DNA of 64,000 bases from a phage. The position numbers and the translations under genes are program-made. Numbering within the stretch: position 1 is the stretch's first letter; each line of letters opens with the position of its first letter. Under the pieces are notes generated by a model. The model ran no database searches and was not told where the DNA came from. It saw only the letters and a list, made by a program, of their open reading frames with translations. The DNA is taken from the NCBI GenBank assembly GCA_024613925.1, contig GCA_024613925.1_4713.1, one strand, 5' to 3'. Below are positions 1,090 through 17,494 of this stretch, in pieces.

Positions 1090-1090
1090 A

Positions 1091-1600: not shown

Positions 1601-1616
1601 TGCAACGGTAACATAA

Positions 1617-1648: not shown

Positions 1649-1665
1649 CTTATGCTGTTATGTTA

Positions 1666-2040
1666 TTAATGTTCGTTCCAGATGGCATCTTCCGGTGGAA
1701 CAATAGGATCTTTCTTCGGCATTGATGGCACTTCATGACGATGTTTACGGAACTGCCTATCAATAACCTCACGAAGCCGGTACGCGTCAACCCATGTTGA
1801 TTTATTGAACAGCTCCAACGTCACGGTTAATCGTGTTCTTGACATTGAATAGCTTTTCTTTGCAATCAAATTGGGATAATTCAGTTGAGCGAACCACGCA
1901 CGTATCTGTGCTTCGGTAAAAGCGATGCTGTAATAACTAAGTTTACCGTCATTAAAATCGTGCGCGTGGGTGTAGCGTCCAGCGTAACGCCAGACAAGAT
2001 GCACATTCAGATCGATCCATGGTGGGGTGGTATCAGCCAT
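1666..2040 (-). CDS. hypothetical protein
   Basis: 124-aa ORF, start abuts upstream gene stop. Confidence 0.5.
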   Translation of the reverse strand: MADTTPPWIDLNVHLVWRYAGRYTHAHDFNDGKLSYYSIAFTEAQIRAWFAQLNYPNLIAKKSYSMSRTRLTVTLELFNKSTWVDAYRLREVIDRQFRKHRHEVPSMPKKDPIVPPEDAIWNEH

Positions 2041-2049
2041 GTGTTACCC

Positions 2050-2619
2050 TCAACGATTCTTCATCACTTTACCCAGGCTTTCGATATTATCCCAAAAGCG
2101 ATTTTTACTTGGCGCATCGCCAACGATAACCGACATCAAATCGCGACGTTCACGACTGATGATGCCCTGTGATTTCCAGATCACCATCGTCCAGCAAGCT
2201 GCCAGAACGAACAGATGGTTAATGCTCGGTTTGGTTTGCGCGATGAACGCAAGCCATGCCCAGATACCGGTATATACTAGCGTCACTAAAAAGAGGGAGA
2301 TTGTCGCAATGACAACAACGAAGTTTTGGACAGCGGGTTGATTCGCGTTATCATGAATAGCGGTAAGATCGGGAAGGTTACCTTCAACTGAACTCGTTTC
2401 ATCGATTTCCAATTCTTCGATTTCTTTTCGTGTGTCGGGAGCTAATCCGGCATCATCAAGATGCTTTTTTAACCGCTGTATACTTAATCGTTGACCGACA
2501 GGAATGTTGATGTTGTCGTAACTATTAAGCGCATCAACCAGGGAGCGCCCGTCAACGAGAACCAAGCTCGCAGTACCCATTGTCTGCGGTTTTATTTTGT
2601 AAAGGTCTTTTACTTTCAT
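2050..2619 (-). CDS. membrane protein (C-terminal hydrophobic helices)
   Basis: 189-aa ORF; hydrophobic stretches FVVVIATISLFLVTLVYTGIWAWLAFI. Confidence 0.5.
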   Translation of the reverse strand: MKVKDLYKIKPQTMGTASLVLVDGRSLVDALNSYDNINIPVGQRLSIQRLKKHLDDAGLAPDTRKEIEELEIDETSSVEGNLPDLTAIHDNANQPAVQNFVVVIATISLFLVTLVYTGIWAWLAFIAQTKPSINHLFVLAACWTMVIWKSQGIISRERRDLMSVIVGDAPSKNRFWDNIESLGKVMKNR

Positions 2620-2640
2620 GTAGACACCACCTCCAACGTG

Positions 2641-5253
2641 TTAAGCGTCTGGTGTAAAATCAAAAGGAATGTCCGTACGAATGACATCATAGCGTTTTCC
2701 GAGGAAATAAAACTCTTCGGGAACCTGACCGGGAATAATGCTATCGCCGATGAACTGCGGATACGCCCAGATGTACTGAGTGAGTCCTTCGAACATATCC
2801 AGGTTATTTGCGTGGTTGCCCATGATACGTTTCCAGAGTTCGCGTTTATACGGTGTTTTAACATCGAACCCATAAAGCGGTGCAAGATCTTCACCAGGAA
2901 CAAATCCCAGGTAATAGTGAATCTGACTAACCGGGAAACCAAGCGTATCTCGCGGAATGGTGATCGCTTGCTCTGCCTTGGTGACATGCGTCTCAATAAT
3001 CCAGTCGTAACACTCCGAATAGAACCGATCGAATTTCTCTGGATTATACCACGCTTTGGGAAGATTCAGTTTCTCCGTGAACGCGTTCGACATGATCGTC
3101 GGCAAGAACGGAAGAATACCGGTTTTGATCTGCGTGTATTTCGATTTTACCCGGTTAACCAAATTCCAGCAACTGTATCCTAACTGTTCGTTACAAAACT
3201 CAACGTAGAGATCGTAGTCACCGCCGGATAATGGGTTGTTGATGTCACCGATGTCTGCGGCATATTTGTTGGGATATCGGTTATTGAAAGCCAGTTTGGT
3301 CTGGTAGTCGTAGATACACGGTTTGTTGTTCGCTGTATTGATCCACCACCAAGGTTCACCTACCTGCACACAAATGTCCTGGACATGAGGGTAGATGATA
3401 TCAGCGAATGCCGTTAACACATCCCCTAACCACGCCATCGCCTGTTGGTTACATGGAGACAGCAACCAAGATGGTGGCGTATATCCGGTTGCTGCGATGT
3501 TTCCTTCCCAATCCTGCTGCGCCCACTCGAACGGGCATGCGGTACTCATCAATTCGTAACTTAAACTGATGGTGACAGAGAAATGGTGTTTTGCAGCATA
3601 TGCGGCGAAAGCTTCATGCCACGCAATACAGGCCGGATTTAATACATCCGTGGTGTTTACCAGTAACTTACCTGCACTTGGCGTCCAGACAGTATCGTAG
3701 AAATGCGACATGCCAACATAATGCACTAATTCATCTTGATATCCCGCATAAACCAGGTTCTCAAATACGCGCTCCGGCGTGATGTTGTAATGGTCATCAT
3801 AAGCAGTTATCGCACGAAGTTCGTGTGGTGTACAGTGGTGGCGACTAACCGTCATTTCCTGATACACCCCATCGATAGGAAGAATCTCGAGGGTTAAGCC
3901 GAGGTCGATTGGCGTTTCCAGATAGGTCGTTTCAGTCGCACCTTCCTTATAATGTCGAGAACTCATGCTGAACATCAACGACGCTACCGATTCGAGTTCG
4001 ATAGGCTCGTCAGCATAGAACCCCGCCATTGCGTCATTGAAATCGATCGTCACGATTGCGCTTCTACCGTCTTCAGAGACATCGGTCGCATATCGGGTTA
4101 ATGAGATATACTGACGGCTATCGTCTTTGTGTACGACGGTTAAAACCGGCGGGTGTTCGGTATCTGCAAAGTTACGCTGGTCGCCAGTAAACGTGACCTT
4201 CGCTTTAAAGATCAAACCGAGTAACGATGTCATGGGATCATACGCAATACTGCCGTGATCCAGCGTATCCGTTGTCCGCCATTCTATCCCGACCAACCCG
4301 TTAGCGGTATGGCATCGCATATACGCATTAAGTGTCATGTCCTCACTGACAACCGCGAAGTTCTCTGTTGACTGACCGTTGATAATCCAATACATCGGTT
4401 GCCAGAGGTTACGCGTACCTTTTGCGTAGTGGTAGGTTGGTGCGCCTTTGGGATTGCCATTATTAAGATGAAATACAGCAGTACCTTGATAATGGTCGTT
4501 CGTATTAATCGGAACACTGTAAGCATCACCGAGGTCCGTACGTTCGACCTTCGTGACTGTTGCGTTTTCAAACAACCCACGTAACGCCGGTAAACCGATA
4601 TCTTCAGGTGCGTTTTCTCGACGAATCGCATCCGCGATGCGGTGGGCTAAGGCGGGGTAAATGGCATCACCCTGTTGTAGGTTTGCAAGACCTACAAAGC
4701 GATCGGGGTCGATGCCAGCAATCAATAACTCAACATCACCCTTCGTTCTATCGTTGTGAAGATATTTCAGTCCAGTAAGATCGAGGTGCTGAATAAGCGA
4801 CAACAGGTTGTATTTACGGTTTTCAACAGTTAGTACAAGATCGCCTGCCCAAACCAAACTTCCCTCATCCGCTGTTACTTTAACGGATTGTCGGCCTGTG
4901 GTAGACGTTGTTGTCGTTTTATTTAATTGTCCTTGTAGGAAGTCGGTTGCGAGGTCAAAGGCAATGCCGTAACGGTCAGCGACCGCTTGCATGATTTCAC
5001 GTAACTGGGTATCTTCTTCAATGATAATCTTGACAGGTATTCCCAAGAACGCTTTAGCGAGGTCTCGTTTAACCAACGAGACGAATACGGATTTGTAGTA
5101 TCGACTTCCATCTTTCCCTTTAAAAAGAATGGAGGTTGTTTCGGGTGACGATAGAATACGCGCAAATTCAACATCGTCGAAAGTAAGAGAAAGTCCGTTT
5201 TTCTCGTTGACCAATCTTAGTATTTCATTTTGCGCGGTTTCATGTAACTTCAT
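2641..5253 (-). CDS. tail fibre / tailspike-like receptor-binding protein with shared N-terminal adapter module (paralog A)
   Basis: 870 aa; N-terminal ~160 aa homologous to ORFs 10445..10993, 11128..12957, 52953..54410 (motifs RDLAKAFLGIPVK, DRYGIAFD). Confidence 0.6.
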   Translation of the reverse strand: MKLHETAQNEILRLVNEKNGLSLTFDDVEFARILSSPETTSILFKGKDGSRYYKSVFVSLVKRDLAKAFLGIPVKIIIEEDTQLREIMQAVADRYGIAFDLATDFLQGQLNKTTTTSTTGRQSVKVTADEGSLVWAGDLVLTVENRKYNLLSLIQHLDLTGLKYLHNDRTKGDVELLIAGIDPDRFVGLANLQQGDAIYPALAHRIADAIRRENAPEDIGLPALRGLFENATVTKVERTDLGDAYSVPINTNDHYQGTAVFHLNNGNPKGAPTYHYAKGTRNLWQPMYWIINGQSTENFAVVSEDMTLNAYMRCHTANGLVGIEWRTTDTLDHGSIAYDPMTSLLGLIFKAKVTFTGDQRNFADTEHPPVLTVVHKDDSRQYISLTRYATDVSEDGRSAIVTIDFNDAMAGFYADEPIELESVASLMFSMSSRHYKEGATETTYLETPIDLGLTLEILPIDGVYQEMTVSRHHCTPHELRAITAYDDHYNITPERVFENLVYAGYQDELVHYVGMSHFYDTVWTPSAGKLLVNTTDVLNPACIAWHEAFAAYAAKHHFSVTISLSYELMSTACPFEWAQQDWEGNIAATGYTPPSWLLSPCNQQAMAWLGDVLTAFADIIYPHVQDICVQVGEPWWWINTANNKPCIYDYQTKLAFNNRYPNKYAADIGDINNPLSGGDYDLYVEFCNEQLGYSCWNLVNRVKSKYTQIKTGILPFLPTIMSNAFTEKLNLPKAWYNPEKFDRFYSECYDWIIETHVTKAEQAITIPRDTLGFPVSQIHYYLGFVPGEDLAPLYGFDVKTPYKRELWKRIMGNHANNLDMFEGLTQYIWAYPQFIGDSIIPGQVPEEFYFLGKRYDVIRTDIPFDFTPDA

Positions 5254-5275
5254 TAAAAACCTCAGCCCTTTAGAA

Positions 5276-5917
5276 TTAAATGTACTGCTTACCGCCCACG
5301 AAGGAAGTTAACCAGTTACCCGAAACAAGCTGCGAAGCCCAGCCAGGCACTGCCCTACCATTCTGGCTCATGATGTTACCACACCAACCAGGGAATCCGG
5401 GACGGATGTAATAGAAAGTTAAATTGTAGAGATGGCAATTCCATACCGCAACGTTATGTTTACCAGAAACCGCTTTAAAGACAAACGCAACGGGTAAAGG
5501 CGACGATAACAATTCAGTCACAGGAACAGCTGACCAGTTCGCATTCGCGTTCCACGGCTGCCATGTGTGTTTGCGCGAGTCACAGTTAACGTTACCGTTG
5601 TTACCGCGCCCACCCGCATGCCACCATAGCGACGGACTCATGTTCTTAAGTGAGGTAAATTGCTGCGGTGGAATATTAGGAATGATAACAGGGTTGGTAC
5701 CTTGTCCGTGTTTCTTTTCTTTTGCGTTTACATACCCACTTATCGATTCGAGGTATTTGACACCAGGATAATTGTTCTGGACTTGTGTCGCAATATCACG
5801 AACGTCGAACGTCCAGCAGATCATGGTGTTGTAGTAAGCGTCGGTGTTATCGTGCCATGAGTTACCATCTTGTAAACGTGCGCCGCTATTCGGTGTTTTA
5901 TCTGTACTTATAGCCAT
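5276..5917 (-). CDS. hypothetical protein (Trp/Asn/Gly-rich), in fibre module
   Basis: 213-aa ORF between lipoprotein gene and paralog A. Confidence 0.5.
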   Translation of the reverse strand: MAISTDKTPNSGARLQDGNSWHDNTDAYYNTMICWTFDVRDIATQVQNNYPGVKYLESISGYVNAKEKKHGQGTNPVIIPNIPPQQFTSLKNMSPSLWWHAGGRGNNGNVNCDSRKHTWQPWNANANWSAVPVTELLSSPLPVAFVFKAVSGKHNVAVWNCHLYNLTFYYIRPGFPGWCGNIMSQNGRAVPGWASQLVSGNWLTSFVGGKQYI

Positions 5918-6056
5918 GGTCTTGTCCTATACGTTGGTGGTTGAAATGGCGGATATCGGATGCATGCTGGACGTGAACCCTATAATTCGCGCTATCGCCA
6001 TTTTCTACCTCGTTTCTATTCTCAAAAAGGAAATTTCATACGATGACGCCATAGCA

Positions 6057-6086
6057 GCTCCTCCTTCCCTGACGGGTTGGAGGAGC
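6057..6086 (-). terminator. GC-rich hairpin (gctcctcc...ggaggagc) downstream of lipoprotein gene
   Basis: 8-bp stem plus inner ccc/ggg; core ttccctNacgggttgg shared with hairpin at 1617. Confidence 0.5.
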
Positions 6087-6094
6087 ATACTTAA

Positions 6095-6601
6095 TTACTT
6101 ACTGATAACCTCAACGGAATCCGGGTCGGCGATCAGCGCACGATCGGTAGAACAATTGAAGAAGACCATACCAACACCATCACCGTTCGAGTTCAGGGTT
6201 GAACTTGCGTAAGACAGGGTTGGTTTATTCATGCGGTAGAAGCGTTCGCTGGTTGTGGTATTGAACCCCAGATCAACGTAGTCTTTCACCGTGGTGTACA
6301 ACTGTGTGGACTCGAAAACGGTTACCGGAGAGTCAACGGTAAACTGACTGCCTTCATCCACAACCAGAACTTTATCGTTCCAGATTTCAGTGGTTGAGAA
6401 CTTCGGTTTCCAATGTTCGAATTCCTGGGTTGCACCCCAGCAAGAATACACAGCGAGATTGCTGTTCTTCTCGACAGGTTTCAACCCCACCAGTTGTGTC
6501 AGGTCTTTATCCAGGTTCGGTAAACCTTCCAGCGTAGCACACCCACCCAGAGAAAGCACCATCAACATACCAAGAACGATCGTGCAAAGTTTCTTCATCA
6601 T
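6095..6601 (-). CDS. lipoprotein (signal peptide with lipobox LSLGGC)
   Basis: N-terminus MMKKLCTIVLGMLMVLSLGGCATLEG. Confidence 0.6.
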   Translation of the reverse strand: MMKKLCTIVLGMLMVLSLGGCATLEGLPNLDKDLTQLVGLKPVEKNSNLAVYSCWGATQEFEHWKPKFSTTEIWNDKVLVVDEGSQFTVDSPVTVFESTQLYTTVKDYVDLGFNTTTSERFYRMNKPTLSYASSTLNSNGDGVGMVFFNCSTDRALIADPDSVEVISK

Positions 6602-6641
6602 CGGATTTCCTTATGTGTAACGGGAGTGATCTCCATAGTAA

Positions 6642-7226
6642 TTACACAGTTGTAGGAAATTCCGGCCAATCGATATTTGGTGCTGTTGATGTGTCAACGC
6701 GATGCAGAGCCACCCGATACTTTTTCCATGCCGTCAACATGGACACCTCTTCTTCCGTTGCGATCTCCAGATCCACAGCATCCTGAAGTGGCGTAATATG
6801 ATCATTCGCCGCCTTCATCAGACTGTTTTTTGTTTCTTCCGCCTCCCGGATCCGGAACAGTTTTTCTGCTTCCGTATCCTTCACCCAGGCTGTGCCGTCC
6901 CACTTCTGAAACTCCCCTTCCGGCGATAACCAGGTAACATTTTCCGGTAACGGACCGAGTTCAGAAATAAATAACGCGTCGCCGGAAGCCACGTCATAAA
7001 CCGTTTTACCCCGATGATCTTCAACGAGATGCCACGATTCATTTTCATTGTTAAAAACTGCCACAAAACCAGCAGGAATTTCCGGTGGGGCGATATCTGT
7101 AGAATTAGCTGGCAGACCTGTATGAGGCGGAATATATGCATCACCTTCACCAATAAATTCATTAGTTCCGGCCAGCAGATTATAAATTTTTATGGTCCGT
7201 GGTTGTTCACTCATTCTGAATGCCAT
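6642..7226 (-). CDS. tail fibre assembly protein (Tfa-type chaperone)
   Basis: C-terminal region [45 protein letters not shown] typical of lambda/P2-type Tfa; start ATG overlaps fibre stop (TAATG). Confidence 0.8.
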
Positions 7227-10200
7227 TATGCAAGCCTCACGATGTAGTTAAATGCAATGTTTTTGACGGTGTTTTCCGCGTTACCCGTAGCGTTAACGGT
7301 GATGGTGTGTCCATGTGATCCAATCGCAACCGAGTGCGTATGCGCACCAATACCTACAGTATGTGCATGTGCGCCAGAACTTGCTGCAGTACCAGACAGC
7401 GAGTGGGTATGTGCTCCATCTGATGATGTCTTCCCTGATATACGGGTCATACCTGAGCCACCTTCCAGTGGTACAATTGGTGCTTTGACTGAAACCTGGG
7501 TATAACCGTTAGGAAAGAGTGCACCATTATTAGAATTCGTATATGGTCCAGAACTCCGGTGTTGGTGCCCACCTGCACTATTTGCAGTCCCGCTCACACT
7601 GTGTGTATGTGCCCCGGTGTTATTCGTGGATTTAGTGCCGTAATCAAACGACGATGTGGTTTTCGTCCCCAAATCCGTATTGGATGCGCTGGCGCTATGG
7701 TTGTGCGATTTTATGCCGTCCTGTTCCTGAGACAATACGGCACGACCACTGGCAGGTTTGCCCTTAATCGTCCAGCCACGCATATCAGGAATAACGCCTG
7801 ACGGATAAGCCACTGCAAGTTTCGGGTATACAGATTTGTCAAAAGTCTGCCCTTGCATCAGAGCATAACCAGACGGAACGGTATCTGAAGGCCATGGAAT
7901 AGGCGCGCCAACAGGCAACTCCGGAGGTGCGGTAAACTCACCCAACTCCTTTATTGCCTCAATAAGTAGAGCTATTTGGGCAGAGATAGAGACCGTTAAA
8001 ACGTCCTCACCATTAGCGTCTTTATAAGTAGAAACTGCTTCAGGTAACACTTTTTGTAAGGTTTGTGCTACAACGCCAACCTCACGATGAACATTAGTGG
8101 ATTTAAAGTTCTCCTTTTTGTCGTATATTAAACCTGACAATTTCTTTACCTTCTCCAATGCATTAGTTATTGGAGAGAAATTACTTTTCAGCCGGGCGTC
8201 TGATCGTGTATAAACTTCGTTAAAGTTACCGTTCCCATCACAATCTATATTTCCAGTAACGTTGAGAGGTACATAGCTTTGAACAGCCTCTCTCGTAAAG
8301 CGTAAAACGTGGTCATAATCGGCGTAAACATCTAGAACGCCGTCCCCGTTCTGCTTAAAGCCGGTGTCATCATCCCCTAAAGCTATGGAGTTCTCACCTA
8401 AATGATTCTCGGTTCCAATACCCAGATTATCGCTTAAAATACTATCAATAGCAAATATTGAATGAGAACAATAAAACCCTCGTCCATTGTTAAAATCCAA
8501 AATGGTTTGTGCGTTCGTGCTTTCTGTCGCGGGATTAGTTGCTCCCCACTTATAGGTTGTTTGACCGACGGTATAATTCTTGGTCGGAACACTAACCGAT
8601 AACCCTTCTTCGGCAAAAACTTGAATAGGGAAAGCCCTACCTTCGACGTAAAAAACGCTGCACACATCATCATCTTCCGCACCTGTTACAATGGAATGGA
8701 TTGCGCGCTCATCAGTATCATATATCGAAAAATACCCTGCTGCGTATGAACCACGATCAGTCCAACCGCCCGGCATTACCGTTCCATTGAATTCGCAGTT
8801 ATTCATTGCATAATCACCACTGGCAGATGTGGTTGTAATAACCACTCTGGAAGCCAGTTCGCCAGTGCTACCAGTGGAACGCCGGAAAATAACTGGATAC
8901 CACTTTCCGCCAACGGCTTTAGACGGCGCGTTAAATACGTACTGCCGCATTCCTTTTTTCTTATCCACCTCGTCTTTGCTGTAAACATTAATGTTACTCA
9001 GGAAGCGACCCTTATCAGGAATATCTGCGCCGTTAGAACTGCGTTGCATAGCGCCCGCAGCTTTATCAACAGTGGTTTTCAAACCCAGGAAGTTAATGAT
9101 ATCGGCCGTCGACCCTTTCGCTAACAAATCACGCGCAGTCGAGGTGAAATCCGCTAACCCTACCTGATTACTACCGGTAAAATAAGGGAGTTTATTCGCT
9201 TCTGTTGTTAGGTTAGACCACGCCGTGAGCAGCGCGTTCAAAGGTTGTTTACCCGCCAACGTATTGGTTATTGTCGTTGCGAAATTAGGATCGTTCCCTA
9301 AAGCTTGAGCCAGCTCATTAAGCGTATTTAGCGCTTCTGGAGACGAGTCGATCAGTGATGCGATAGCACGCATCACAAATTCCGTGTTGGCAATCTGTCG
9401 ACTGCTATCGTTCTCTGCAGCCGTAGGCGCTGCCGGGATACCGGTGAACACAGGGCTATTAAGATCTGCCTTGAGAGCGATGAGACGTTTAAGTGCGTCG
9501 ACATCGACTTTCAGGTTTTCCCATCCGATGAGAGAACCACCACTGCTGGCATGGTAACGGTTGTACCAGAAGTCACCGTTAACGCCTAAAAAGAATATTC
9601 CCTTCTCTTCGTTTTGTGGGCCGGAACTATTTCGTGACGAGCTGATGTAATTGATTTCAATGAGGCCGTTAAACGTCACTCCCGGGATGATTTTGTTGTC
9701 TCCAGCCGACTGTGATACCTGGTAAATCCCCGGGGTTGCGGCTTTGACCCATGTTAAGAATTCTGTTACTCCAGCGGTACCGCTGAAATTCTTAACGTCG
9801 GTAAGTATTGCCCCATAACCGAACATACCGGGTAGAGCCACTCGTCCGTTGGTGCGGTCACGAATATCTGTTGCAACAACAGGCAATTGTTTACGAACGG
9901 CATTAACCGCTTTAGGCGTGGCCGATTTTGTCTCGTCGTCGCTATCGGTTTCATTACTTAGAATAGTTAAACCGCGCGTAGCAGTCGTTGCATCAGGAAG
10001 AAATGCGTTATCCAACACCTTAAGCTGTATTGCACTCGTATTACTAACAACGACATGCACCTGACAGTTAAGAACGCTGGTTGCGCCTTCGGTAGGCGTA
10101 GGCTTATATCTTTCTGGCGCACTGCAGACGGCAATCAGAACACCTTGGTCATCATACAAACCGATCTCACGTACCCAGAACCCACCTTGACCAGCAGGAA

Positions 10201-10438
10201 TAATACCCTCAACGATAATCCTGGTTGTGCTGTCACCATCCGCATGGATATTAGAAACTTCCCCACGATAAACTTCGTGAACAAGCGCTGTTTGGCTGGC
10301 GTTCGGGGTTGGGATCGAGCCGTTACCATCACCAACGGCAAAGTGTGTGATTTTTAGTTTCTCACCGTCGGGAAGTAACGCAGCGGTGATACGTTCTGCT
10401 CCTTTATCGGTAACTACCGTTATATATGCTGTACTCAT
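7226..10438 (-). CDS. long tail fibre protein with C-terminal His-x-His repeat tip
   Basis: 1070 aa; repeats [38 protein letters not shown]; Gly/Ser/Thr-rich; followed by Tfa gene. Confidence 0.8.
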
Positions 10439-10444
10439 GGTGTT

Positions 10445-10993
10445 TTATCCTGGATAAATAGTGATGATATCACCAATGACGGTTGTGGCACCGGCGTAAA
10501 GATGAGCCGGGGATACATCGTGTTGGTTTGTCACAGTAAGATCCAATCGACCACGCCAAACCATGGAGGTATTCGCGATGGGGATAGAGATCTTTTTGGA
10601 TATATCGTCACGAAAATCAATAACAGTGGCAAGGGTAACTGCATCAAAATCGACGTCGGGGTCAAAGACGAACCCGTATCGATCTGAAATCGCCCGAATA
10701 ATCGCATGTATAGTTGTTGTCTCAACGGACTCTAAAACGATTTTTACCGGTATTCCTAAAAATGCCTTCGCGATATCGCGTCGAGCGTAAACGATAAAAC
10801 TTTCACCGCACCACTTTGTTCCTTCATTTGCTGTGACGATCACTTTTGCCCTGTTAGCACCAGAACTCCCATCCAATGTTAATGTAAGATCGGAGCTGCT
10901 GAACACGCTACCGTTACGTTGGTTTATCAACGTAATCAGTTCGTCTTTCCATGGCGGGTAAAGTGAACGCATAAGCGCACCCTCCTCCAACAA
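10445..10993 (-). CDS. stand-alone N-terminal adapter module protein (paralog B) immediately upstream of long fibre gene
   Basis: 182 aa, homologous only to the N-terminal module of paralogs A/C/E (RRDIAKAFLGIPVKIV, SDRYGFVFD); stop 6 nt before fibre ATG. Confidence 0.55.
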   Translation of the reverse strand: MLEEGALMRSLYPPWKDELITLINQRNGSVFSSSDLTLTLDGSSGANRAKVIVTANEGTKWCGESFIVYARRDIAKAFLGIPVKIVLESVETTTIHAIIRAISDRYGFVFDPDVDFDAVTLATVIDFRDDISKKISIPIANTSMVWRGRLDLTVTNQHDVSPAHLYAGATTVIGDIITIYPG

Positions 10994-11127
10994 TCAAATT
11001 AAATTGTAAACGCCTCGAGACCGGAGTGCGATTCGAGGTAAACGTAAACAGTCCAGACGACCGCATAAAATTCCGCGCATATTGCCCCTCTATCCCGACA
11101 AAGCGAGATAGAGGGAGGATAATACTT

Positions 11128-12957
11128 TTATGCTGCTACGTATCCCGGCCAACGTTCTCTTGGCCAGTTTGTTGCGCCCTGCCCAACGTTGTCCTTACCA
11201 GAAATTACATTACTTACGTCCCAACCGCTAAGGTCTTGGTTAAATGCGGTGTTATCGCGCATCATGAGATCGATCTCACGTAGTGACTGGGTATTCCAGC
11301 CGGAAATGTCTTGGTTAAATGCTTTATTGGAGGCAAACATGTTAGTCACGTTCTGTAATTTTGATGTGTTCCAACCACCGATATCACTATTGAACGACGT
11401 GTCCGAGAACATGCCTGCGGCGTTAATGAGGCTGTCTGTTTTCCAGTTAATCAGCTTGTCACCATCGAGCGCCCTGCAACCACCGAACATAAAACTCATA
11501 TCGTTAACTTTGGATACATTCCATTTATCTAACCCGTTACCAACGAACGCGTAACAAGACTGGAACATCCAGCTCATATCGGTAACCCGACTCACATTCC
11601 ATTTACTGAAGTCGAGGTTAAGTTTCTGACACCCTAAGAAGGTTTCACACATACTGGTGATACGACTAACATCCCACTCTTGGATGTTGGGGTCGTTAAG
11701 CGTCGTTAAATAGTTGAACAATTTGTCTAACGACGTCCATTTCTCTGGGATACGGTTTGGTACTGTATGAAGCGATGAAAGGTTATTGGTTGATGGAGAG
11801 CGGAACATGCCGTTATCCCAATTTACGATCTCCGTAATTTCGTACCCTCTGATCGTCTGAGTAGCGTAACCATCTTTCACCGTACCTGTAGCGACGATGG
11901 TATATTCACCAGTGTCCGCATAATCGTGGACGTAGGCATTGTTGCTGGCGGTCTCCGTCGTCTTAGTCCCATCACCCCAATCGATATTGACGTTATCCCA
12001 CCCACCTAGTTTGAACTGTACTTTGCCTCCGGTGGCTTTTAGGATGTATTTACCCCCATTGTCTGTATAATAACAGACAACCATTGGACCGTACAGATTA
12101 CCTATCTGCCAATCATCCTTTTGCGTTATTGCGATTTGCGCCGCACCACGCTGTACGAAGAGTACCGTACGATTCTCGGCAGTCTGTAATGTGGTTATTG
12201 CCTGAGCCTTATCGTCCTCGCTAATTTCACCAGACACCACTAAAGCGCTTAACATCCTTTCGAAGTATTCGATCGGTAACTCAGCTCCAACAGACTTATC
12301 AACAGACTGTACAGCAAGATCACCCAATGCTGCAGTGGTAGCCAATGCCAATGAACCCTTGGTCATATCTGTTTCTTGGATGTAATGCAGTCCCGTAAGC
12401 TGGTACGCTTGAATAATAGTAATCAGGTTCAGCGTATCGTTAACGACCTGTACTTGTAAATACCCGGACCACACATAGCTGTCTTCGGCAATTAGTAGAT
12501 CGACTGACTGAATACCTGATGTTTCAAAGGTGATCTTCTCATTAAGATCGGTTTCCAGGAAATCAACCGCGAGGTCGAAATTAATGCCGTACTTTTCAGC
12601 GATGGAATCTACGATATTTCTTAAAGTAACATCTGTGCTTACGATAAAACGTAACGGAATTCCTGTAAACGCTTTAGCAATGTCTCGACGAACATACGTA
12701 AGCGATTGTTCGAAGAAATACGGGCTGTTATCTCCAGGCTTGATGGTTACCTGGCACACTTCAGGATATTCGGCTGGGATGAACGATTCGAATTTAACAT
12801 CGGATTCTTTCAACGAAAGATTGTTATTCCGGTTCACTAACGCCAGAAGATCGGCTTTCCATCCGGGGTAAACTGTAGACATAAGCACTCCAAAGTTCAT
12901 GGGGCGGTAACCGCCCCGTTGGTTAAATTGTTGGTTTAATATCGCGTAATAGGGCAA
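11128..12957 (-). CDS. receptor-binding protein: N-terminal adapter module plus C-terminal BspA-like leucine-rich repeats (paralog C)
   Basis: Repeats WNVSRVTDMSWMFQSC, WNVSKVNDMSFMFGGC, GWNTSKLQNVTNMFAS, SGWNTQSL, SGWDVSNV; true start probably downstream near MSTVYPGWK. Confidence 0.65.
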   Translation of the reverse strand: MPYYAILNQQFNQRGGYRPMNFGVLMSTVYPGWKADLLALVNRNNNLSLKESDVKFESFIPAEYPEVCQVTIKPGDNSPYFFEQSLTYVRRDIAKAFTGIPLRFIVSTDVTLRNIVDSIAEKYGINFDLAVDFLETDLNEKITFETSGIQSVDLLIAEDSYVWSGYLQVQVVNDTLNLITIIQAYQLTGLHYIQETDMTKGSLALATTAALGDLAVQSVDKSVGAELPIEYFERMLSALVVSGEISEDDKAQAITTLQTAENRTVLFVQRGAAQIAITQKDDWQIGNLYGPMVVCYYTDNGGKYILKATGGKVQFKLGGWDNVNIDWGDGTKTTETASNNAYVHDYADTGEYTIVATGTVKDGYATQTIRGYEITEIVNWDNGMFRSPSTNNLSSLHTVPNRIPEKWTSLDKLFNYLTTLNDPNIQEWDVSRITSMCETFLGCQKLNLDFSKWNVSRVTDMSWMFQSCYAFVGNGLDKWNVSKVNDMSFMFGGCRALDGDKLINWKTDSLINAAGMFSDTSFNSDIGGWNTSKLQNVTNMFASNKAFNQDISGWNTQSLREIDLMMRDNTAFNQDLSGWDVSNVISGKDNVGQGATNWPRERWPGYVAA

Positions 12958-15900
12958 TATAATAGCCTAATCCTCGGAGGATCTCTCCACTCCAGAAACC
13001 AAAATACATTCCGTCTCTGCCGAGATTAGCGCTATCTGGTGCAGGACTCCACCCACCATTCATTACGTCATCAACGGTGTAGCGGTTGATGTAGTTCTCA
13101 ACGATTTCGTTATACGCATTAACCGCAACAGAATAGCCTTTATCGTTGGGATGTCCGTACAACATTGCTAACGACGCACCCGCCAACCATAATCCTGCCA
13201 TATGACCAGTAAAATCATTAGGGATAAAAGCAGGGGGTTTATCCATCGGAAAATCCGTAGGAGATTGATAAGCGTTTTCCTGTTGATACGTAAACAAGAA
13301 ATCGATCCAATGGCTGATGTAAGTGGTTAACTTCTCAGGGACGGCTAAACCACGATCGAGCAGTCCAGCATAAAGCCTCACCGCTGAGAAGAAAGCCCTC
13401 GGCTGATAACCAGACCATGCCGTCTGATCGCCGAAGTGGTACATCGTAAAATCATTAACTTTTGATCCGCTTGGCGCATCCCAACGATCCCACACGTACG
13501 CACTTGCCCCTGGCCCTAAAACCCCGAATTTCTGATAATACCACTGCTGCGAGTCATACCAGAAATTCACAACATTCTGAATCATGAGGTCACGTCGTTC
13601 AGCCGATACGTCCATATCCAGGAAGACCCATGGATGTTGGTAGCCGGGATAAGGCTGACCACGCCAACTGTCGAACGTCGGTGCGTTAGGGACATAGTTG
13701 TTCGAGAACGGAATAATACCCGGAGTATAAGGCAATGGATCCAGACGTTGGTTGACAATCGTACAATCGCCAACACGCAGTGTGCCCTCCGCCTCAAAGG
13801 TTGCTTTTAACGTAAACAGCATGGTATATCCGTCATCCGTGGTGTAAGTTGACGGTGGATTGTTGATGGCGTAAAGCTTAAATACCCCTTCAGCGATATC
13901 GCCGTCGTCAGGCAAGAACAGAATTTCAGTTGAACCATCGCCCCACACAGGTGCAGAAGGTTTAGGGTCAGTATCAGCGTGGCCCGGTTGATACCCTGAG
14001 AGCGTCCATCCGTTCGCCGAAAGCGTCAATGTATTTCTTGCTGTGGTGGCCGGTAGCATATACCACCATCGCCAGCCGTTTGTATCTTCTACACGAACGT
14101 TGTAGTCAATCGACGCGAAATAACTGACCTGCCTTACGATCTGTTTTGCGGTCGGATTGAATTCAAATTGCCCGCCTGCCGCAGTAAGCTGCGCTTTTAG
14201 GAACAACCCATCCCAGGAATCTTCCACCGCTTCGCTGAATTCTGTTGTGATGGCGACATCATCTTTCCAGCCGACTTTATCAGCCGATATCAACACAGAA
14301 CCTGTAACAGCATCGCCGGTTGGCGTTGAAGCTTCATCAACCGCATCAGCAGGAATCAACGAGCCTATTTTGAAATCCCATTCTTTCGGCTCGGCACTGG
14401 AAGGTAACACCAGCTTGTACGTTTTGGCTTTCGCTTCGGTTTTGTCCAAAGAAAGCGATAATGAGATCTCAACCGGAATTGCAATACCCGCTGTATCTTT
14501 ACCACCGCAGGTTACACGAAGAATTGAATCACGATTGACGCGGAACGGAATAGCCTGCTGTTCAAGGTAAATTTGTGCTGAGGATGCTTGAATCACGATC
14601 CAGCCGTCAGTATCACGTGTAATTGTGAACGGTGCTTTCGATGGATAGGTATACGTGTAAGCGATACCGTCGGTGTCGTAACGATCGGTTCCTTTTACCT
14701 GACGGAAGAACTTATCGTTGGCGTCGATACGAGTATATTCTTCAATCGTAAACAACGATGCCTTGTACGCTTTCTGATAGCGCTCCTGCTGCGTTAAACT
14801 GTATAAGGTGTAGGCTGCTTCACAAAACCACTGTTCAGCGTCTGACGCGTTTCCCATGTAGTCTCTGGTGACCGGCACCTGGATCGGTCGGTTATGCTGA
14901 CACTCGTTCGTTTTGATGAGGTATCCGCCATATTCAACAGGAACGCGGGGTGCCCACGCAACCAAATAAGAACCGCTGACGGACTTATCTTTGAGTACGA
15001 TGGTGCCCACCTCATCGTCAGTACACGCTTCAAGATCGTCCCCGCCCACACTTACGTATCGTTTTGTGCGTAACGCAACTTTCTCGATAGGGAACACCGT
15101 ACCCTTTGTATCCCAGTCAATCGTCCCATCATCATTGGTTTTGAACACATCGGCGTTCAAATTCTGCCAGCCGAGTTTACCCTCATAGACCTGAACAACA
15201 AGATCCATGTATTCCCCGAACGTTGGTGCCCCATGTGTTATTTTCCCGATACCGTTGGTGAATGTAACCGCGGTGTCATGGAAACCGCCATGTGTCGGGT
15301 AATCGTTTTTTGCAAGAGGATAATGGGCCAACACCGGCTGTTTACCATTAACAATCCAGTTAGCGATCCAGCGTGCCGGTGTATCCGGTGGTTCAAGACC
15401 CGCATAGAACGCTTTTATATACGCATCGAACGATGCCTCCGCTAATGTGAGATAGTGCGCTTTAAGCTTGGTATCATCCGTTGTATGACTGAATATACCC
15501 GCACCCAGAATTAACAACGACTGTCCTTCTGTTGTTGCGTCACCATCCGGTTGTGCTTCTTGTCGTGTTGCTGCAATGAAATGACGGTTGTTTACCATGA
15601 CCCCGCTTTCATTTAACACGTAATGATCGGTTTCTGGATCGGTAAACGTTCCTGTGTTTCGGGTTAAGAATCTTGCATGGCCATAACCAACGAAATTAAC
15701 CGGCGACGCTGTAATCATCCATTTACCGATAAGTTGAGCAACATCATTATAACGCTCGGATGCGGTGATTTGTTTCACGTACCAGTCTTTACGGTTAAAT
15801 GTCCAAAGCAGGAAGTAATAAGTTGTATCGATTTCCATCACTGGGAACGTCGGCGTTAACGGCTCCAGCATTAAGTAGTTGCTCCAGTCAATCTGTCCGC

Positions 15901-16519
15901 CAACAACCGATGGGGTAATCTCTAATAACTGACACCATTCATAACGGTCCGGTACACTACTGGACGTTGTTGGTAAAGGTAACTTGTATACGCCGGTACG
16001 ATTCAGATCGAACGCTTTTCTAGCCGATCCTAAATCAACATAAATACTCGATGATGCGCTTGCACTATACGCTCCCAAAGCACCTAGCGTTGACCGATAC
16101 ATTGAGATGAACAACGTATCTTTCCAGTACGGGTTATCCTTGGTTGGTTCTAAAGCGATTTGTGCGGAGATGCTGTTCTGTGTCCCTAACTGGTATGTTG
16201 CATTTAAAGATTCTTCCGTGAAATAACTTTCTGCAATTGCCAGATGGAACTGCTCGTTCAATAATGCGAGTGCGGCGCGTCCAGTAACATCCTCATTACC
16301 GGTTTCTTTTTTCATGATCGCGCCGAACGGAAACAATGTCGCGAATGACCGTTTTGGTTTATTAACCGTAACCGTCCCTGTGTAATTTCCAACACCATCA
16401 AGTTTTTGACTATCGCCAACAGCAGTGACTGCGATACCATCAGCCGGGATATCTGTTTTATTTAGTATATTGAGTTGGTCAACCAGATCCTGCTTATCGT
16501 CAGGTAAGAATGTCGCCAT
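12923..16519 (-). CDS. large (1198 aa) virion-associated protein of unknown function, possibly enzymatic tailspike
   Basis: Long ORF with SD GGTGGAG upstream of ATG; preceded by adapter-only ORF 16533..17363. Confidence 0.5.
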   Translation of the reverse strand: MATFLPDDKQDLVDQLNILNKTDIPADGIAVTAVGDSQKLDGVGNYTGTVTVNKPKRSFATLFPFGAIMKKETGNEDVTGRAALALLNEQFHLAIAESYFTEESLNATYQLGTQNSISAQIALEPTKDNPYWKDTLFISMYRSTLGALGAYSASASSSIYVDLGSARKAFDLNRTGVYKLPLPTTSSSVPDRYEWCQLLEITPSVVGGQIDWSNYLMLEPLTPTFPVMEIDTTYYFLLWTFNRKDWYVKQITASERYNDVAQLIGKWMITASPVNFVGYGHARFLTRNTGTFTDPETDHYVLNESGVMVNNRHFIAATRQEAQPDGDATTEGQSLLILGAGIFSHTTDDTKLKAHYLTLAEASFDAYIKAFYAGLEPPDTPARWIANWIVNGKQPVLAHYPLAKNDYPTHGGFHDTAVTFTNGIGKITHGAPTFGEYMDLVVQVYEGKLGWQNLNADVFKTNDDGTIDWDTKGTVFPIEKVALRTKRYVSVGGDDLEACTDDEVGTIVLKDKSVSGSYLVAWAPRVPVEYGGYLIKTNECQHNRPIQVPVTRDYMGNASDAEQWFCEAAYTLYSLTQQERYQKAYKASLFTIEEYTRIDANDKFFRQVKGTDRYDTDGIAYTYTYPSKAPFTITRDTDGWIVIQASSAQIYLEQQAIPFRVNRDSILRVTCGGKDTAGIAIPVEISLSLSLDKTEAKAKTYKLVLPSSAEPKEWDFKIGSLIPADAVDEASTPTGDAVTGSVLISADKVGWKDDVAITTEFSEAVEDSWDGLFLKAQLTAAGGQFEFNPTAKQIVRQVSYFASIDYNVRVEDTNGWRWWYMLPATTARNTLTLSANGWTLSGYQPGHADTDPKPSAPVWGDGSTEILFLPDDGDIAEGVFKLYAINNPPSTYTTDDGYTMLFTLKATFEAEGTLRVGDCTIVNQRLDPLPYTPGIIPFSNNYVPNAPTFDSWRGQPYPGYQHPWVFLDMDVSAERRDLMIQNVVNFWYDSQQWYYQKFGVLGPGASAYVWDRWDAPSGSKVNDFTMYHFGDQTAWSGYQPRAFFSAVRLYAGLLDRGLAVPEKLTTYISHWIDFLFTYQQENAYQSPTDFPMDKPPAFIPNDFTGHMAGLWLAGASLAMLYGHPNDKGYSVAVNAYNEIVENYINRYTVDDVMNGGWSPAPDSANLGRDGMYFGFWSGEILRGLGYYIALLRDIKPTI

Positions 16520-16532
16520 TATTTACTCCACC

Positions 16533-17363
16533 TTAATCGTAACTAAAATAAAGTTTGCTGCTGACGCCGCTATCGGAATGAGGTTTTAACACCAGAACAG
16601 AGCTTCCGAACGACGGAAGTATTGGAACATCTAAATCGTTCGCGTCAGCAACTTTTCCATTATAAACGACACTGGCTGTTGTGATGAGTTCCCAAGCTGA
16701 GGTATAACTCATTGAAATCAGCGATGAGGCTAAACGGAATGCGTTGTATCCTTCTGGACTATCTCCAACCGACATCGAACGTATCGCATCTTGCGGCGGT
16801 AAATTTAGCTTGATACCGTAAGTGCTGAATGTGTGGAAATCCCCTTGTTTACTATCTTCTGGATAGTACGAGGTTAGTGGTTCTCGCACCGTAAACAGTT
16901 CGCTAATATCGGTACTTACCGCTTTTCGTGCGAGGAATTGAAACGTACCGTACCACGATGCCGATGCATCAGAACGAACGGGAACAGATATGGTTTTCTC
17001 GCCGCTTTCAAATTTAACCTGTGATGCTAACGCTGAAGAATCAAAGATCGTTAAATCGATCTTCAACCCATACTTCTTAAACAGCTGCGTTAAGCAATCT
17101 GCTATCGTCGTCTTATCAGCAACGACAATAAAAGGTTGGTGTTTGATAAAGAGCTTATTAATGTCTCGACGTTGAAGATAAACCTGTACGGGGTCTTCGA
17201 CGTAGTAAACCGATTGTGGTGCGGGGGCTATAGAAAGGCGTAACCGACCCGATGCACCATACCAGGCTGGCGTTAACGTAATGTCTGACAGGGATAACGG
17301 ATGCTGGAGATAGGTGTTTATTTTAGATAACACTTCCTCCTGCCATGATGCTTCAGGATACAT
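16533..17363 (-). CDS. divergent adapter module protein (paralog D)
   Basis: 276 aa; weaker similarity to adapter module (RRDINKLFIKHQP, FKKYGLKIDL). Confidence 0.5.
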   Translation of the reverse strand: MYPEASWQEEVLSKINTYLQHPLSLSDITLTPAWYGASGRLRLSIAPAPQSVYYVEDPVQVYLQRRDINKLFIKHQPFIVVADKTTIADCLTQLFKKYGLKIDLTIFDSSALASQVKFESGEKTISVPVRSDASASWYGTFQFLARKAVSTDISELFTVREPLTSYYPEDSKQGDFHTFSTYGIKLNLPPQDAIRSMSVGDSPEGYNAFRLASSLISMSYTSAWELITTASVVYNGKVADANDLDVPILPSFGSSVLVLKPHSDSGVSSKLYFSYD

Positions 17364-17421
17364 GCTGACCTCATAGATGATCGTTGATAGGAAAGAGACC
17401 TAATTCATACCATGGGAACCT

Positions 17422-17475
17422 TAAAAAAAAGAAAAATAGGAAAACGGTGTTCATCCTTTTAGGGATGAACACCGT
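17422..17475 (-). terminator. intrinsic terminator: 13-bp perfect stem followed by U-rich tract on minus strand
   Basis: acggtgttcatcc/ggatgaacaccgt stem 17444-17475; minus strand then reads TTTCCTATTTTTCTTTTTTTT. Confidence 0.7.
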
Positions 17476-17494
17476 GTACCGTTATATCGAACGA

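Follow-up and report, generated by a model that had tools for sequence, protein, structure and literature searches.

The window analysed here, a stretch of 64,000 nucleotides of phage DNA, encodes six predicted members of the chimallivirus DUF7941 family, of 276, 1198, 584, 175, 870 and 485 aa. We think it likely that such proteins join head-to-tail in baseplate-anchored filaments, with the 276-aa protein holding the N-terminal domain (NTD) of the 1198-aa protein, and the 175-aa protein acting as a low-copy link or cap. Judged by nucleotide alignment, the source is an E. coli jumbo phage, Goslar-like and of the Chimalliviridae: Goslarvirus goslar matches window positions 1-24000 at ~96% nucleotide identity (blastn/megablast alignment of the scanned stretches), which assigns the window's DUF7941 genes to a chimallivirus, or nucleus-forming jumbo phage. 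The domain has also been reported in cellular Spiroplasma proteins (PMC13375240; P0089).

An earlier note had described a shared N-terminal module in five receptor-binding proteins. That finding is right but not new. The family had been named in a preprint of April 2026, together with its effector domains and a filament model; there, Goslar DUF7941 is presented as the link of long, host-sensing filaments anchored at the baseplate, and the members listed are gp86, gp91, gp92, gp93 and gp161 (Basu et al., bioRxiv 10.64898/2026.04.21.720040). These are direct orthologues of window genes, at ~96% nucleotide identity, with matching order, junctions and lengths (870, 175, 1198, 276 and 483-485 aa). 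Unlike Goslar, the window has an additional DUF7941-LRR gene, of 584 aa, lying between the orthologues of gp92 and gp91, and lambdoid-type sequence in place of the distal ~585 aa of the tail fibre and its chaperone (Tfa). What is new here is that Goslar has deleted the 584-aa gene and that paralogues have recombined at the RRDIAKAF motif.

Table 1. Features of the DUF7941 genes and their surroundings (window coordinates; CTD, C-terminal domain).
Feature	Position	Strand	Matches
870-aa protein: full DUF7941 (2-277) + NCTSP_N + TIM barrel; Goslar gp86 orthologue	2641..5253	-	PF25613 E 5.7e-45, profile positions 2-275 of 276; other Pfam E 1.5e-10, 1e-84
Tail fibre assembly chaperone (Tfa), 194 aa	6642..7226	-	PF02413 E 8.8e-43
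P2/lambda-type tail fibre, 1070 aa	7226..10438	-	PF12571 from residue 1, PF03406, PF13884, PF07484
175-aa 'adapter-only' protein: NTD (1-150) + disordered 25-aa tail; Goslar gp91 orthologue	10445..10972	-	PF25613 E 6.9e-16, profile positions 7-154 (175/182-aa ORF)
RRDIAKAF codons, 175-aa gene, partner crossover site	10760..10783	-	
584-aa DUF7941 + BspA/DUF285 LRR protein	11128..12882	-	Pfam; PF25613 E 4.1e-24, profile positions 12-187 (584/609-aa ORF)
RRDIAKAF codons, 584-aa gene, crossover site	12667..12690	-	
1198-aa protein: divergent DUF7941 NTD, then podophage-type tail-protein domain; Goslar gp92 orthologue	12923..16519	-	
276-aa protein, DUF7941 only (NTD + linker + CTD); Goslar gp93 orthologue	16533..17363	-	PF25613 E 2e-8, profile positions 63-274
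Terminator-like hairpin, 13-bp stem, directly upstream of 276-aa gene, marks cluster start	17444..17475	-	
485-aa DUF7941 + BspA/DUF285 LRR protein; Goslar gp161 orthologue	52953..54410	+	Pfam; PF25613 E 3.9e-25, profile positions 5-187

All five ORFs of the earlier note are present, strands and coordinates included, and they do share a homologous N-terminal module: each matches Pfam PF25613 (DUF7941) with 34.5-154 bits, the gathering score being 27 bits for a profile of 276 positions. Window DUF7941 ORFs also match phrog_1037 and phrog_2935 ('virion structural protein'). Aligning the N-termini, as the note had proposed, gives pairwise NTD identities of 20-56% and places its core motifs, (R/K)RD(I/L)AKAF-GIP and (R/K)YG-x-FD, in invariant columns (R63, D64, K67, F69, Y95, G96 and D100). 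On these identities, motif columns and Pfam matches, we reject the possibility that the similarity is one of low complexity. The module is larger than the ~160 aa originally proposed, consisting of a ~150-aa globular NTD, then a linker and, in many cases, a CTD of ~100 aa, ~276 aa in full; this extent is seen by Pfam in the 870-aa and 276-aa proteins, and by our own alignment in the 584-aa and 485-aa proteins too. It begins within residues 1-15 in 6/6 window copies and is N-terminal in nearly all of the best 150 family representatives. The domains that follow it are an NCTSP TIM barrel, a BspA/DUF285 LRR or a podophage-type tail-protein domain, so that the module precedes exchangeable host-recognition domains, as had been claimed (Pfam and PHROG matches). 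Values of dN/dS of 0.06-0.16 across the genes indicate purifying selection on all of them.

The sixth copy, missing from the earlier count of five, is the N-terminus of the 1198-aa ORF (residues 2-137, window 16109-16516). This ORF had been read as a module-less partner of the small gene upstream, a description that fails because it carries a divergent DUF7941 NTD of its own, ahead of the podophage-type domain (residues 279-1193; phrog_2871, E 1e-295). Against a family HMM built from 138 sequences the N-terminus has an E value of 4.3e-7, the next window ORF having 0.68, and the orthologue in the relative L002 reaches 7.8e-12; in Pfam PF25613 it is sub-threshold, at 18.6 bits. Its alignment is collinear with the family, KRSFATLF standing where RRDIAKAF would. 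The AF2 model of this region is of low confidence (pLDDT 52), and its sole PDB match is 9xqd_0 (E 4.8e-4). The orthologue gp92 is likewise counted among the DUF7941 proteins (bioRxiv 10.64898/2026.04.21.720040).

The same PDB entry was found with the 175-aa protein. The earlier note had started this ORF and that of the 584-aa protein at upstream TTG codons (10445..10993 and 11128..12957); the true starts are likely ATG 10972 and ATG 12882, since the orthologues are all 175 aa and all 584 aa, respectively, and a Shine-Dalgarno sequence stands before each ATG. The smaller ORF had also been said to consist of the module alone: it does comprise an NTD with no effector, but this is only the NTD of the ~276-aa module, and is followed by a 25-aa tail that ends in an invariant GDxITIYPG (window 10448-10474), the last nine residues being invariant in 27 orthologues. 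In the AF2 model (pLDDT 80), residues 1-150 are globular and pLDDT is <50 after residue 152. Foldseek matches the model to 9xqd_0 (E 1.9e-7, probability 1.00, TM 0.59/0.67), the only significant PDB match, with the next at E 0.2. This 150-residue chain is the NTD of phiKZ gp127, which sits where the gp139 band of the outer peripheral baseplate ends (PMC13250141; bioRxiv 10.64898/2026.04.21.720040). Structure prediction, which the note had suggested for the adapter-only proteins, thus supports a baseplate-linked multi-protein apparatus. Homologues of the 175-aa protein fall into 35 clusters, in which intact members have 175-176 aa and the others are truncated fragments; dN/dS for the gene is 0.10-0.13.

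The present analysis supplies homology, domain layout, the gp127 fold match, conservation, synteny and recombination; the literature supplies the presence of the proteins in virions and their copy numbers, the filaments of gp22 and the fit to phiKZ density; which DUF7941 protein binds which, we infer. In the model that we favour, each ~150-aa globular NTD would be a docking platform, and the linker/CTD of one protomer would bind the NTD of the next to give flexible heteropolymeric filaments, the first NTD sitting at the tip of a spoke (Goslar gp32, phiKZ gp139) of the peripheral baseplate. Host-binding or host-degrading modules would be presented along the filaments by those members that have an extra C-terminal part (podophage tail-protein domain, BspA-type LRR, TIM-barrel glycosidase-like), and the order of the chain would be mirrored by gene order. 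In the most probable arrangement, the 276-aa protein grips the NTD of the 1198-aa enzyme, whose gene lies 13 nt downstream, in the way that phiKZ gp127 holds gp126; for the 175-aa protein, whose gene ends 6 nt before that of the fibre, a role as chain link or cap in low copy number is the most probable, rather than that of a stoichiometric fibre adapter. Because NTDs would be neighbours in the chain, tandem covalent NTDs in single proteins are to be expected, and they occur in single metagenomic proteins (P0070, for example, has three).

In the preprint's proposal, baseplate-anchored filaments are built head-to-tail and bear LRR domains and glycan-binding or hydrolase domains. Support for the docking comes from AlphaFold3 predictions, a single negative-stain experiment and a fit at low resolution; gp22 alone forms filaments in negative stain, and no DUF7941 density was seen in the Goslar baseplate itself (bioRxiv 10.64898/2026.04.21.720040). 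Copies per Goslar virion are given there as 4.5 for gp86, 1.2 for gp91, 4.9 for gp92, 4.8 for gp93, ~111 for gp161, ~112 for gp33, ~580 for gp22 and ~2140 for gp23, gp93, gp92 and gp86 thus being present at about one per six-fold site. The modular docking and branched multi-receptor apparatus envisaged by the earlier note holds as regards the shared module and a baseplate-linked multi-protein system (9xqd fold match, Goslar preprint), but the model in print is of a polymer assembled head-to-tail ('fibre cloud') rather than a fixed, branched adapter tree. The great divergence of the 1198-aa NTD, with its sub-threshold Pfam score and low pLDDT, counts against our preferred explanation.

The gap between the 276-aa and 1198-aa genes is as had been described, a TAA followed by 13 nt containing GGTGGAG and then ATG. 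Given that the 1198-aa ORF has its own module, the 276-aa protein would be a neighbouring chain link that docks module-to-module, not the adapter of a module-less enzyme, and the two genes have the look of a genuine cassette of connector and enzyme. The 276-aa protein matches the family HMM at E 1.3e-46, and its gene has 96% nucleotide identity to that of Goslar, with dN/dS 0.16. In Goslar virions, gp93 and gp92 are present at ~1:1 by mass spectrometry, and low-resolution phiKZ density has been fitted with a gp127 linker+CTD / gp126 dimer (both bioRxiv 10.64898/2026.04.21.720040). The phiKZ proteins gp126, gp127 and gp143 match the family HMM at E 2e-14, 3e-24 and 9e-13, and gp127 precedes gp126 by 8 nt. 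As in the window pair, a full DUF7941 gene is followed by one that starts with an NTD, with NTD fold and HMM family in common, although sequence identity is only 12-14% and gp126 is a bare NTD without an enzyme. Salmonella phage SPLA10 has a small DUF7941 gene (257 aa, E 8e-39) and then a ~1200-aa tail protein, joined by a TAATG overlap, the enzyme part being 48% identical.

Anchor-and-branch receptor-binding systems (CBA120 TSP1-4, Klebsiella phage PhiK64-1, KP32-type depolymerases, G7C gp66/gp63.1, the SP6/K1-5 adapter gp37) have a conserved N-terminal attachment module common to several receptor-binding proteins or enzymes; small adapters give multiple specificities per virion, and C-terminal parts are swapped horizontally. 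The DUF7941 set resembles them in its shared attachment module, but the resemblance is functional only: Pfam, PDB-sequence and fold searches of the window proteins gave no homology to anchor or XD/gp10-like domains, and DUF7941 proteins are proposed to form long chains in which effector-less subunits number hundreds to thousands, not a fixed trimeric branch. Were DUF7941 a classical N-terminal anchor without polymerisation, each NTD would occupy its own peripheral baseplate site and the paralogues would be alternative receptor-binding proteins, side by side. The direct contact of the phiKZ gp127 NTD with the gp139 band (PMC13250141) and the near six-fold occupancy implied by ~5 copies each of gp86, gp92 and gp93 agree with this. 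We nevertheless regard it as highly improbable, given that the copy numbers of gp22, gp23, gp161 and gp33 lie far above plausible baseplate sites, that gp22 alone forms filaments, that covalent tandem NTDs occur, and that 48/148 of the best family representatives are effector-less proteins of 150-210 aa, which would be purposeless as receptor-binding proteins.

To the idea that the small ORFs were cut off the 5' ends of the genes after them by frameshift or nonsense errors in sequencing, we give practically no credence, even though the 175-aa ORF is in the frame of the fibre ORF with only a single TAA and 6 nt between them (TAA, AACACC, ATG, as the earlier note had it). The identical split is found in the Goslar reference, three metagenomic relatives and the 35 protein clusters; PF12571 is matched from the fibre's own residue 1; the 1198-aa ORF does not share the frame of its small neighbour and has its own GGTGGAG ribosome-binding site; both small genes have dN/dS of 0.10-0.16; and phiKZ and SPLA10 share the two-gene layout. 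Conserved split ORFs under purifying selection, with their own ribosome-binding sites, refute the artefact.

The 1070-aa fibre is of the P2 gpH / lambda Stf type, having a PF12571 N-terminus, PF03406, PF07484, fibre repeats, a collar/HxH tip with HxH repeats visible in the translation, and an adjoining PF02413 Tfa (fibre Pfam E values 6e-41, 2e-8 and 9e-11; phrog_295, E 9e-212). Unlike P2, its context is that of a chimallivirus, with no P2-type baseplate; phiKZ fibres, by contrast, are gp131-family proteins (PMC13250141). The window fibre gave no DUF7941 match (family HMM E 8.5). Residues 1 to ~485 are common to Goslar gp90 (blastp), while the distal part and chaperone have been swapped for lambdoid stf/tfa-like sequence, the tip having 87-91% nucleotide identity to lambdoid phages (megablast).

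A dedicated adapter, whose NTD would enter the DUF7941 network or baseplate and whose GDxITIYPG peptide would bind the fibre's P2-type N-terminal domain, seems to us unlikely, though it would allow the phage to mount fibres captured from temperate phages. The two genes adjoin, 6-8 nt apart, in 5/5 loci (Goslar, the window, L002, L003 and L004), and the pair is kept in L004, which has lost the 276-aa and 1198-aa genes and most of the 584-aa gene; adapter and first ~485 aa of fibre are inherited as a single block while the distal fibre is exchanged; the end of the predicted disordered tail is invariant; and the fibre has neither DUF7941 nor a known docking partner in the window phage. Against this, Goslar virions contain ~1.2 copies of gp91 (0.8-1.9) and ~43 of gp90 by mass spectrometry (bioRxiv 10.64898/2026.04.21.720040), a label-free gp91 figure that is rough, coming from two peptides only, but not low through small size alone, since the similarly small gp23 is at ~2140. 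Further, no intact homologue in the 35 clusters exceeds 176 aa, although the ORFs are in frame, TAA and two codons apart; PF12571, PF03406, PF07484 and PF13884 occur in 0/56 long DUF7941 representatives; and the alignment likens the tail motif D-I-I-T-I-Y to the family linker motif [DN]-L-x-x-I-I, suggesting a DUF7941 partner. Only conserved adjacency favours the adapter role put forward by the earlier note, and the copy numbers oppose that role; we consider it unproven and disfavoured. Quite unlikely, too, is a universal coupler in which GDxITIYPG clamps P2/lambda-type fibre N-terminal domains onto the DUF7941/baseplate network. Such a coupler would account for the capture and exchange of fibre tips of temperate E. 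coli phages by a jumbo phage whose baseplate is unrelated, and the low Goslar copy number would then reflect loss on purification or catalytic, assembly-only use. The link or cap reading that we prefer leaves unexplained why the 175-aa gene stays beside the fibre gene where all other DUF7941 genes of the cluster are deleted.

The 584-aa and 485-aa proteins are paralogues (47% identity, blastp), the latter encoded alone between helicase genes, away from the main cluster; the 870-aa protein matches 9lc0 Gp64 and non-contractile tail sheath among PDB sequences. The 584-aa gene is present in L002 and L003 and absent from the Goslar reference through a clean deletion (blastn breakpoints at window 11140-12885) that retains its RBS and last codons. 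Recombination between paralogues at RRDIAKAF is seen in relatives, as chimeric proteins (P0030 and P0033), as the breakpoints of L004 and as a crossover at the nucleotide level. The terminator-like hairpin upstream of the 276-aa gene is also found at the edge of the L004 deletion.

The segment 2641-17363 aligns by megablast to vB_EcoM_Goslar (NC_048170), a nucleus-forming jumbo Escherichia phage (Goslarvirus, Chimalliviridae), at 96% identity over 71% of the query, and blastn of window positions 1-24000 against the Goslar locus gives collinear blocks at 1-6683, 9174-11139 and 12886-23372 (95-96% identity). All the genes considered here lie on the minus strand, with the sole exception of 52953-54410. 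By position and length, the Goslar orthologues are gp86 (870 aa), gp91 (175 aa), gp92 (1198 aa), gp93 (276 aa) and gp161 (485 aa), with gp90 and gp89 corresponding to the 1070-aa P2/lambda-type tail fibre and its chaperone Tfa. Ten Goslar proteins carrying DUF7941 (gp22, gp23, gp31, gp33, gp34, gp86, gp91, gp92, gp93 and gp161) have been described by Basu et al. (bioRxiv, April 2026, 10.64898/2026.04.21.720040), with carbohydrate-binding, glycoside-hydrolase and LRR domains behind the module in gp86, gp92 and gp161. The same preprint predicts head-to-tail oligomers in which the linker and C-terminal domain (CTD) of one protomer sit on the next N-terminal domain (NTD), shows by negative stain that gp22 forms filaments, places a dimer of gp127 and gp126 in phiKZ density that had been unassigned, and proposes a baseplate-anchored 'DUF7941 fibre cloud' for recognising the host. 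DUF7941 proteins are the apparatus with which nucleus-forming jumbo phages are proposed to make first contact with a host and recognise it. Since the preprint covers a phage 96% identical to this one, the paralogy and the link to host recognition were already known; with the family, sister-phage members and a mechanism published in 2026, novelty is low.

Five paralogous ORFs sharing an N-terminal module had been described in the earlier note, and we confirm that observation: the five can be aligned collinearly, 14 columns being invariant (among them R63, D64, K67, F69, Y95, G96 and D100), and each matches PF25613 (DUF7941) above the gathering score (E 2e-8 to 5.7e-45) as well as PHROG 1037 and 2935 ('virion structural protein'). 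Five is not the total, however, as a sixth copy lies in the 1198-aa ORF. A family HMM of 138 cluster representatives, obtained by searching 1.84 billion proteins exhaustively, matches residues 2-137 of this ORF at E 4.3e-7 (the next window ORF scores 0.68) and its orthologue in a relative at 7.8e-12. In Pfam alone this N-terminus reaches a sub-threshold 18.6 bits, and in the alignment it reads KRSFATLF in place of RRDIAKAF. A profile built from the five window copies alone detected neither the sixth copy nor any PDB relative, and thus the deeper 138-sequence profile was needed. The module, put at about 160 aa, is actually about 276 aa, comprising an NTD of about 150 aa, then a linker whose motif is [DN]LxxII...LxGLxY, and finally a CTD. 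Pfam finds it complete in the 870-aa and 276-aa proteins, our own alignment finds it complete in the 584-aa and 485-aa proteins too, and the 175-aa protein ends after a short tail. The genes stand as called, but not the upstream starts assigned to two of them: the real starts are likely ATG 10972 (175 aa) and ATG 12882 (584 aa), given that all orthologues are 175 and 584 aa long and that a Shine-Dalgarno sequence precedes both.

The 175-aa protein, modelled with AlphaFold2 from a 14-sequence alignment (mean pLDDT 80), is predicted to form a globular alpha/beta domain at residues 1-150, with a disordered tail at 153-175. In a Foldseek search of the PDB a single hit is significant, a 150-residue chain of 9xqd (E 1.9e-7, TM 0.59/0.67; runner-up E 0.2), an entry titled 'outer peripheral region in the phage phiKZ baseplate complex'. 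The phiKZ structural atlas (PMC13250141) puts gp127 where, in each outer-baseplate star lobe, the band of five gp139 dimers ends, and the family HMM matches gp127 (3e-24), gp126 (2e-14) and gp143 (9e-13). Little weight is given to a fold match for the 1198-aa N-terminus, modelled from a shallow alignment at pLDDT 52; a word-indexed homologue search with it returned two fragments only. There is also a partial HMM match (E 1.8e-6, HMM positions 91-179) to phiKZ gp158 (44454-45416 in our phiKZ locus), whose gene adjoins that of the outer-baseplate brace-ring protein gp157 and which is absent from the preprint's DUF7941 list (10.64898/2026.04.21.720040).

The exhaustive search yielded 363 cluster representatives at E ≤ 1e-3. 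Among the best 148 of these 363, 48 are 150-210 aa long (NTD with or without linker), 36 are 260-330 aa (the full unit) and the others are longer, so that the forms termed 'adapter-only' in the earlier note (the 175-aa and 276-aa ORFs) represent the commonest architecture. Two or three tandem NTDs occur in the metagenomic proteins P0070, P0077, P0082, P0122, P0160 and P0167, as would be expected if NTDs adjoin in the assembled chain. Because Goslar was the only tblastn match of the 175-aa protein among 50,697 phage genomes, context in distant phages was drawn from searches with the 870-aa N-terminus; a homologue search queried with the alignment gave close relatives only. In Erwinia phage Huxley (NC_031127, 117.4-131.8 kb), ten DUF7941 genes are packed into 18 kb. 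Seven are full-length units in tandem (275-303 aa); the next three encode an NTD plus extension, and behind each of these come two genes for a non-DUF7941 'virion structural protein', making a repeated three-gene cassette. A Pfam scan of 56 long representatives recognised as partners DUF285 (11), LRR_5, DUF5122 (2) and an NCTSP TIM barrel. In a Spiralin-domain lipoprotein of Spiroplasma type (P0089, P0178), at least five repeats of a helix and hairpin ('sWKdrVvdaiN...') match the module in its first ~65 residues only. The commonest partner, DUF285/BspA LRR, is a Mollicutes surface-protein domain, which is notable beside this occurrence. DUF7941 has been noted in Spiroplasma Spaid-like proteins in a paper of 2026 (PMC13375240), and the Spiroplasma occurrence is at odds with the preprint's claim that only chimalliviruses have the domain (10.64898/2026.04.21.720040).

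That the small ORFs are artefacts is refuted by their conservation, by dN/dS (0.10-0.16 for the 175-aa and 276-aa genes), and by the PF12571 match of the fibre, which begins at the fibre's own first residue. Homologues of the 175-aa protein, 59-97% identical, fall into 35 clusters; intact members are 175-176 aa, the others are truncated fragments, and none is fused to a fibre. The same split recurs in Goslar and three metagenomic relatives. Both junctions match the earlier description: the fibre is preceded by TAA-AACACC-ATG, and the 1198-aa ORF by TAA and 13 nt that include GGTGGAG. The 175-aa and fibre ORFs share a frame (10439-10447 is TAA plus two codons, AAC ACC), and one stop-codon change would merge them. 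TAA is an efficient stop codon; given this, an AGGA ribosome-binding site (RBS) before the fibre ATG and the lack of a fused homologue, we rejected stop-codon readthrough. In other Goslar-like contigs the 870-aa gene is truncated or has internal deletions, giving P0039 (195 aa, module-only), P0186 (421 aa) and P0040 (317 aa), with module identity of 87-97%, suggesting that 'adapter-only' forms may come from truncation of effector-bearing genes, unless these three are assembly errors.

The 276-aa protein is a complete DUF7941 unit, and the 1198-aa protein is an NTD followed by a phrog_2871 'tail protein' domain (E 1e-295). The 276-aa protein is therefore not an adapter for a module-less partner, as had been supposed. 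The layout resembles that of phiKZ, where gp127 (290 aa, full unit) is followed after 8 nt by gp126 (147 aa, NTD only), and of Salmonella phage SPLA10, where a 257-aa DUF7941 gene (E 8e-39) overlaps at TAATG with that of a 1209-aa tail protein sharing 48% identity with the window protein over residues 280-1192 of the latter; BLAST does not detect the SPLA10 257-aa and window 276-aa proteins with one another. Goslar virions contain gp93 and gp92 in equimolar amounts (4.8 and 4.9 copies), and gp86 at 4.5 copies, about one per six-fold position. From the shared DUF7941, the phiKZ and SPLA10 layouts and the equimolar gp93 and gp92, we infer that the 276-aa protein is a connector holding the 1198-aa enzyme by module-to-module docking, and the window gives comparative support for such a two-gene connector-plus-enzyme cassette. 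In L003, a 79-kb metagenomic relative, the pair is cut (6635-8054) to a 215-aa truncated DUF7941 ORF and a 255-aa ORF that is the C-terminal end of the enzyme, owing either to loss of a large internal stretch or to misassembly.

Whether the 175-aa protein acts as the adapter for the P2-type fibre encoded downstream is a different matter, and we consider this unlikely. The two genes do lie 6-8 nt apart in all five loci, including that of the metagenomic relative L004, which has lost the 276-aa and 1198-aa genes and the effector part of the 584-aa gene; the 175-aa gene forms one inherited block with the part encoding fibre residues up to ~485 while the distal fibre varies; and GDxITIYPG, the nine-residue end of the disordered tail, is invariant in 27 orthologues. 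Yet Goslar virions hold ~1.2 copies of gp91 against ~43 of gp90, with the equally small gp23 at ~2140, the absence of DUF7941-fibre fusions extends from the 35 clusters to the 56 long representatives, and the tail motif is like the family's own linker motif. We prefer to regard the 175-aa protein as a low-copy chain link or cap. It may be a strict chain terminator, since the tail did not align to the linker in two alignments, although its D-I-I-T-I-Y can also be aligned to the linker motif [DN]-L-x-x-I-I. The original interpretation is thus partly supported: a shared docking module and a multi-receptor apparatus hold up, while dedicated adapters for unrelated downstream fibres are conjectural. 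What interest remains is modest and centres on the mode of attachment of the P2-type fibre, which the window sharpens as a testable question.

New in the window, though modest in extent, are the 584-aa family member missing from Goslar, natural chimeras and a swapped fibre tip. Goslar keeps the RBS and last codons of the 584-aa gene (ggagtg, then tagtagcataa), so the gene was deleted there; its product shares 47% identity with the 485-aa orthologue of gp161, a protein present at about 111 copies in Goslar virions. In relatives, the chimeric 176-aa proteins P0030 and P0033 take their first ~72 residues from the 584-aa gene and the remainder from the 175-aa gene, crossing over within the codons for VRRDIAKAF-GIP, so that the conserved motif serves for recombination between paralogues and NTD halves are interchangeable. 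L004 carries such a chimera at 5426-5956. P0030 and P0033 have different C-terminal-half haplotypes; either the event recurred or further recombination came after it. The distal ~585 aa of the fibre (residues ~486-1070) and Tfa (6642-7226), window 6684-9173 on the minus strand, have no Goslar counterpart, and the fibre tip plus tfa (6664-7915) is 87-91% identical in nucleotides to lambdoid E. coli stf/tfa (ev099, mEp332, PhiR30_1 and others). The fibre has an internal Peptidase_S74 intramolecular-chaperone domain (746-802) ahead of its Collar and HxH tip, in addition to the separate Tfa. Nucleus-forming jumbo phages resist many bacterial defences and are hence candidates for phage therapy; knowing how subunits link and recombine at the motif would allow enzyme or LRR cargo to be swapped rationally and host range retargeted.

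Features within and beside the DUF7941 cluster, in window coordinates
Feature	Position	Strand	Remarks
213-aa Trp/Asn/Gly-rich ORF	5276-5917	-	Goslar gp87 orthologue; between lipoprotein gene and 870-aa gene
168-aa ORF, lipoprotein signal peptide and lipobox (MMKKLCTIVLGMLMVLSLGG, then C)	6095-6601	-	Directly after fibre and Tfa genes; Goslar gp88 orthologue
Perfect short hairpin CCCTCTATC...GATAGAGGG	~11087-11113	-	After 584-aa gene
584-aa DUF7941-LRR gene	11128-12882	-	Absent from Goslar reference; present in L002 and L003 (metagenomic relatives)
Perfect short hairpin GGGGCGG-TTA-CCGCCCC	12905-12921	-	After 1198-aa gene
Terminator-like hairpin, 13-bp stem	17444-17475	-	Just upstream of 276-aa gene

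The hairpins in the table may subdivide the DUF7941 cluster transcriptionally. A sigma-70 promoter scan gave no guidance, with 19 sites against 27.6 expected, and phages of this kind also use their own RNA polymerases. The sole match of the 168-aa ORF is phrog_9559 (unknown function); lying beside receptor-binding genes, it would recall receptor-masking lipoproteins such as T5 Llp. The 213-aa ORF is without a Pfam or PHROG match, and is kept as a 213-aa gene in L002 and L003.
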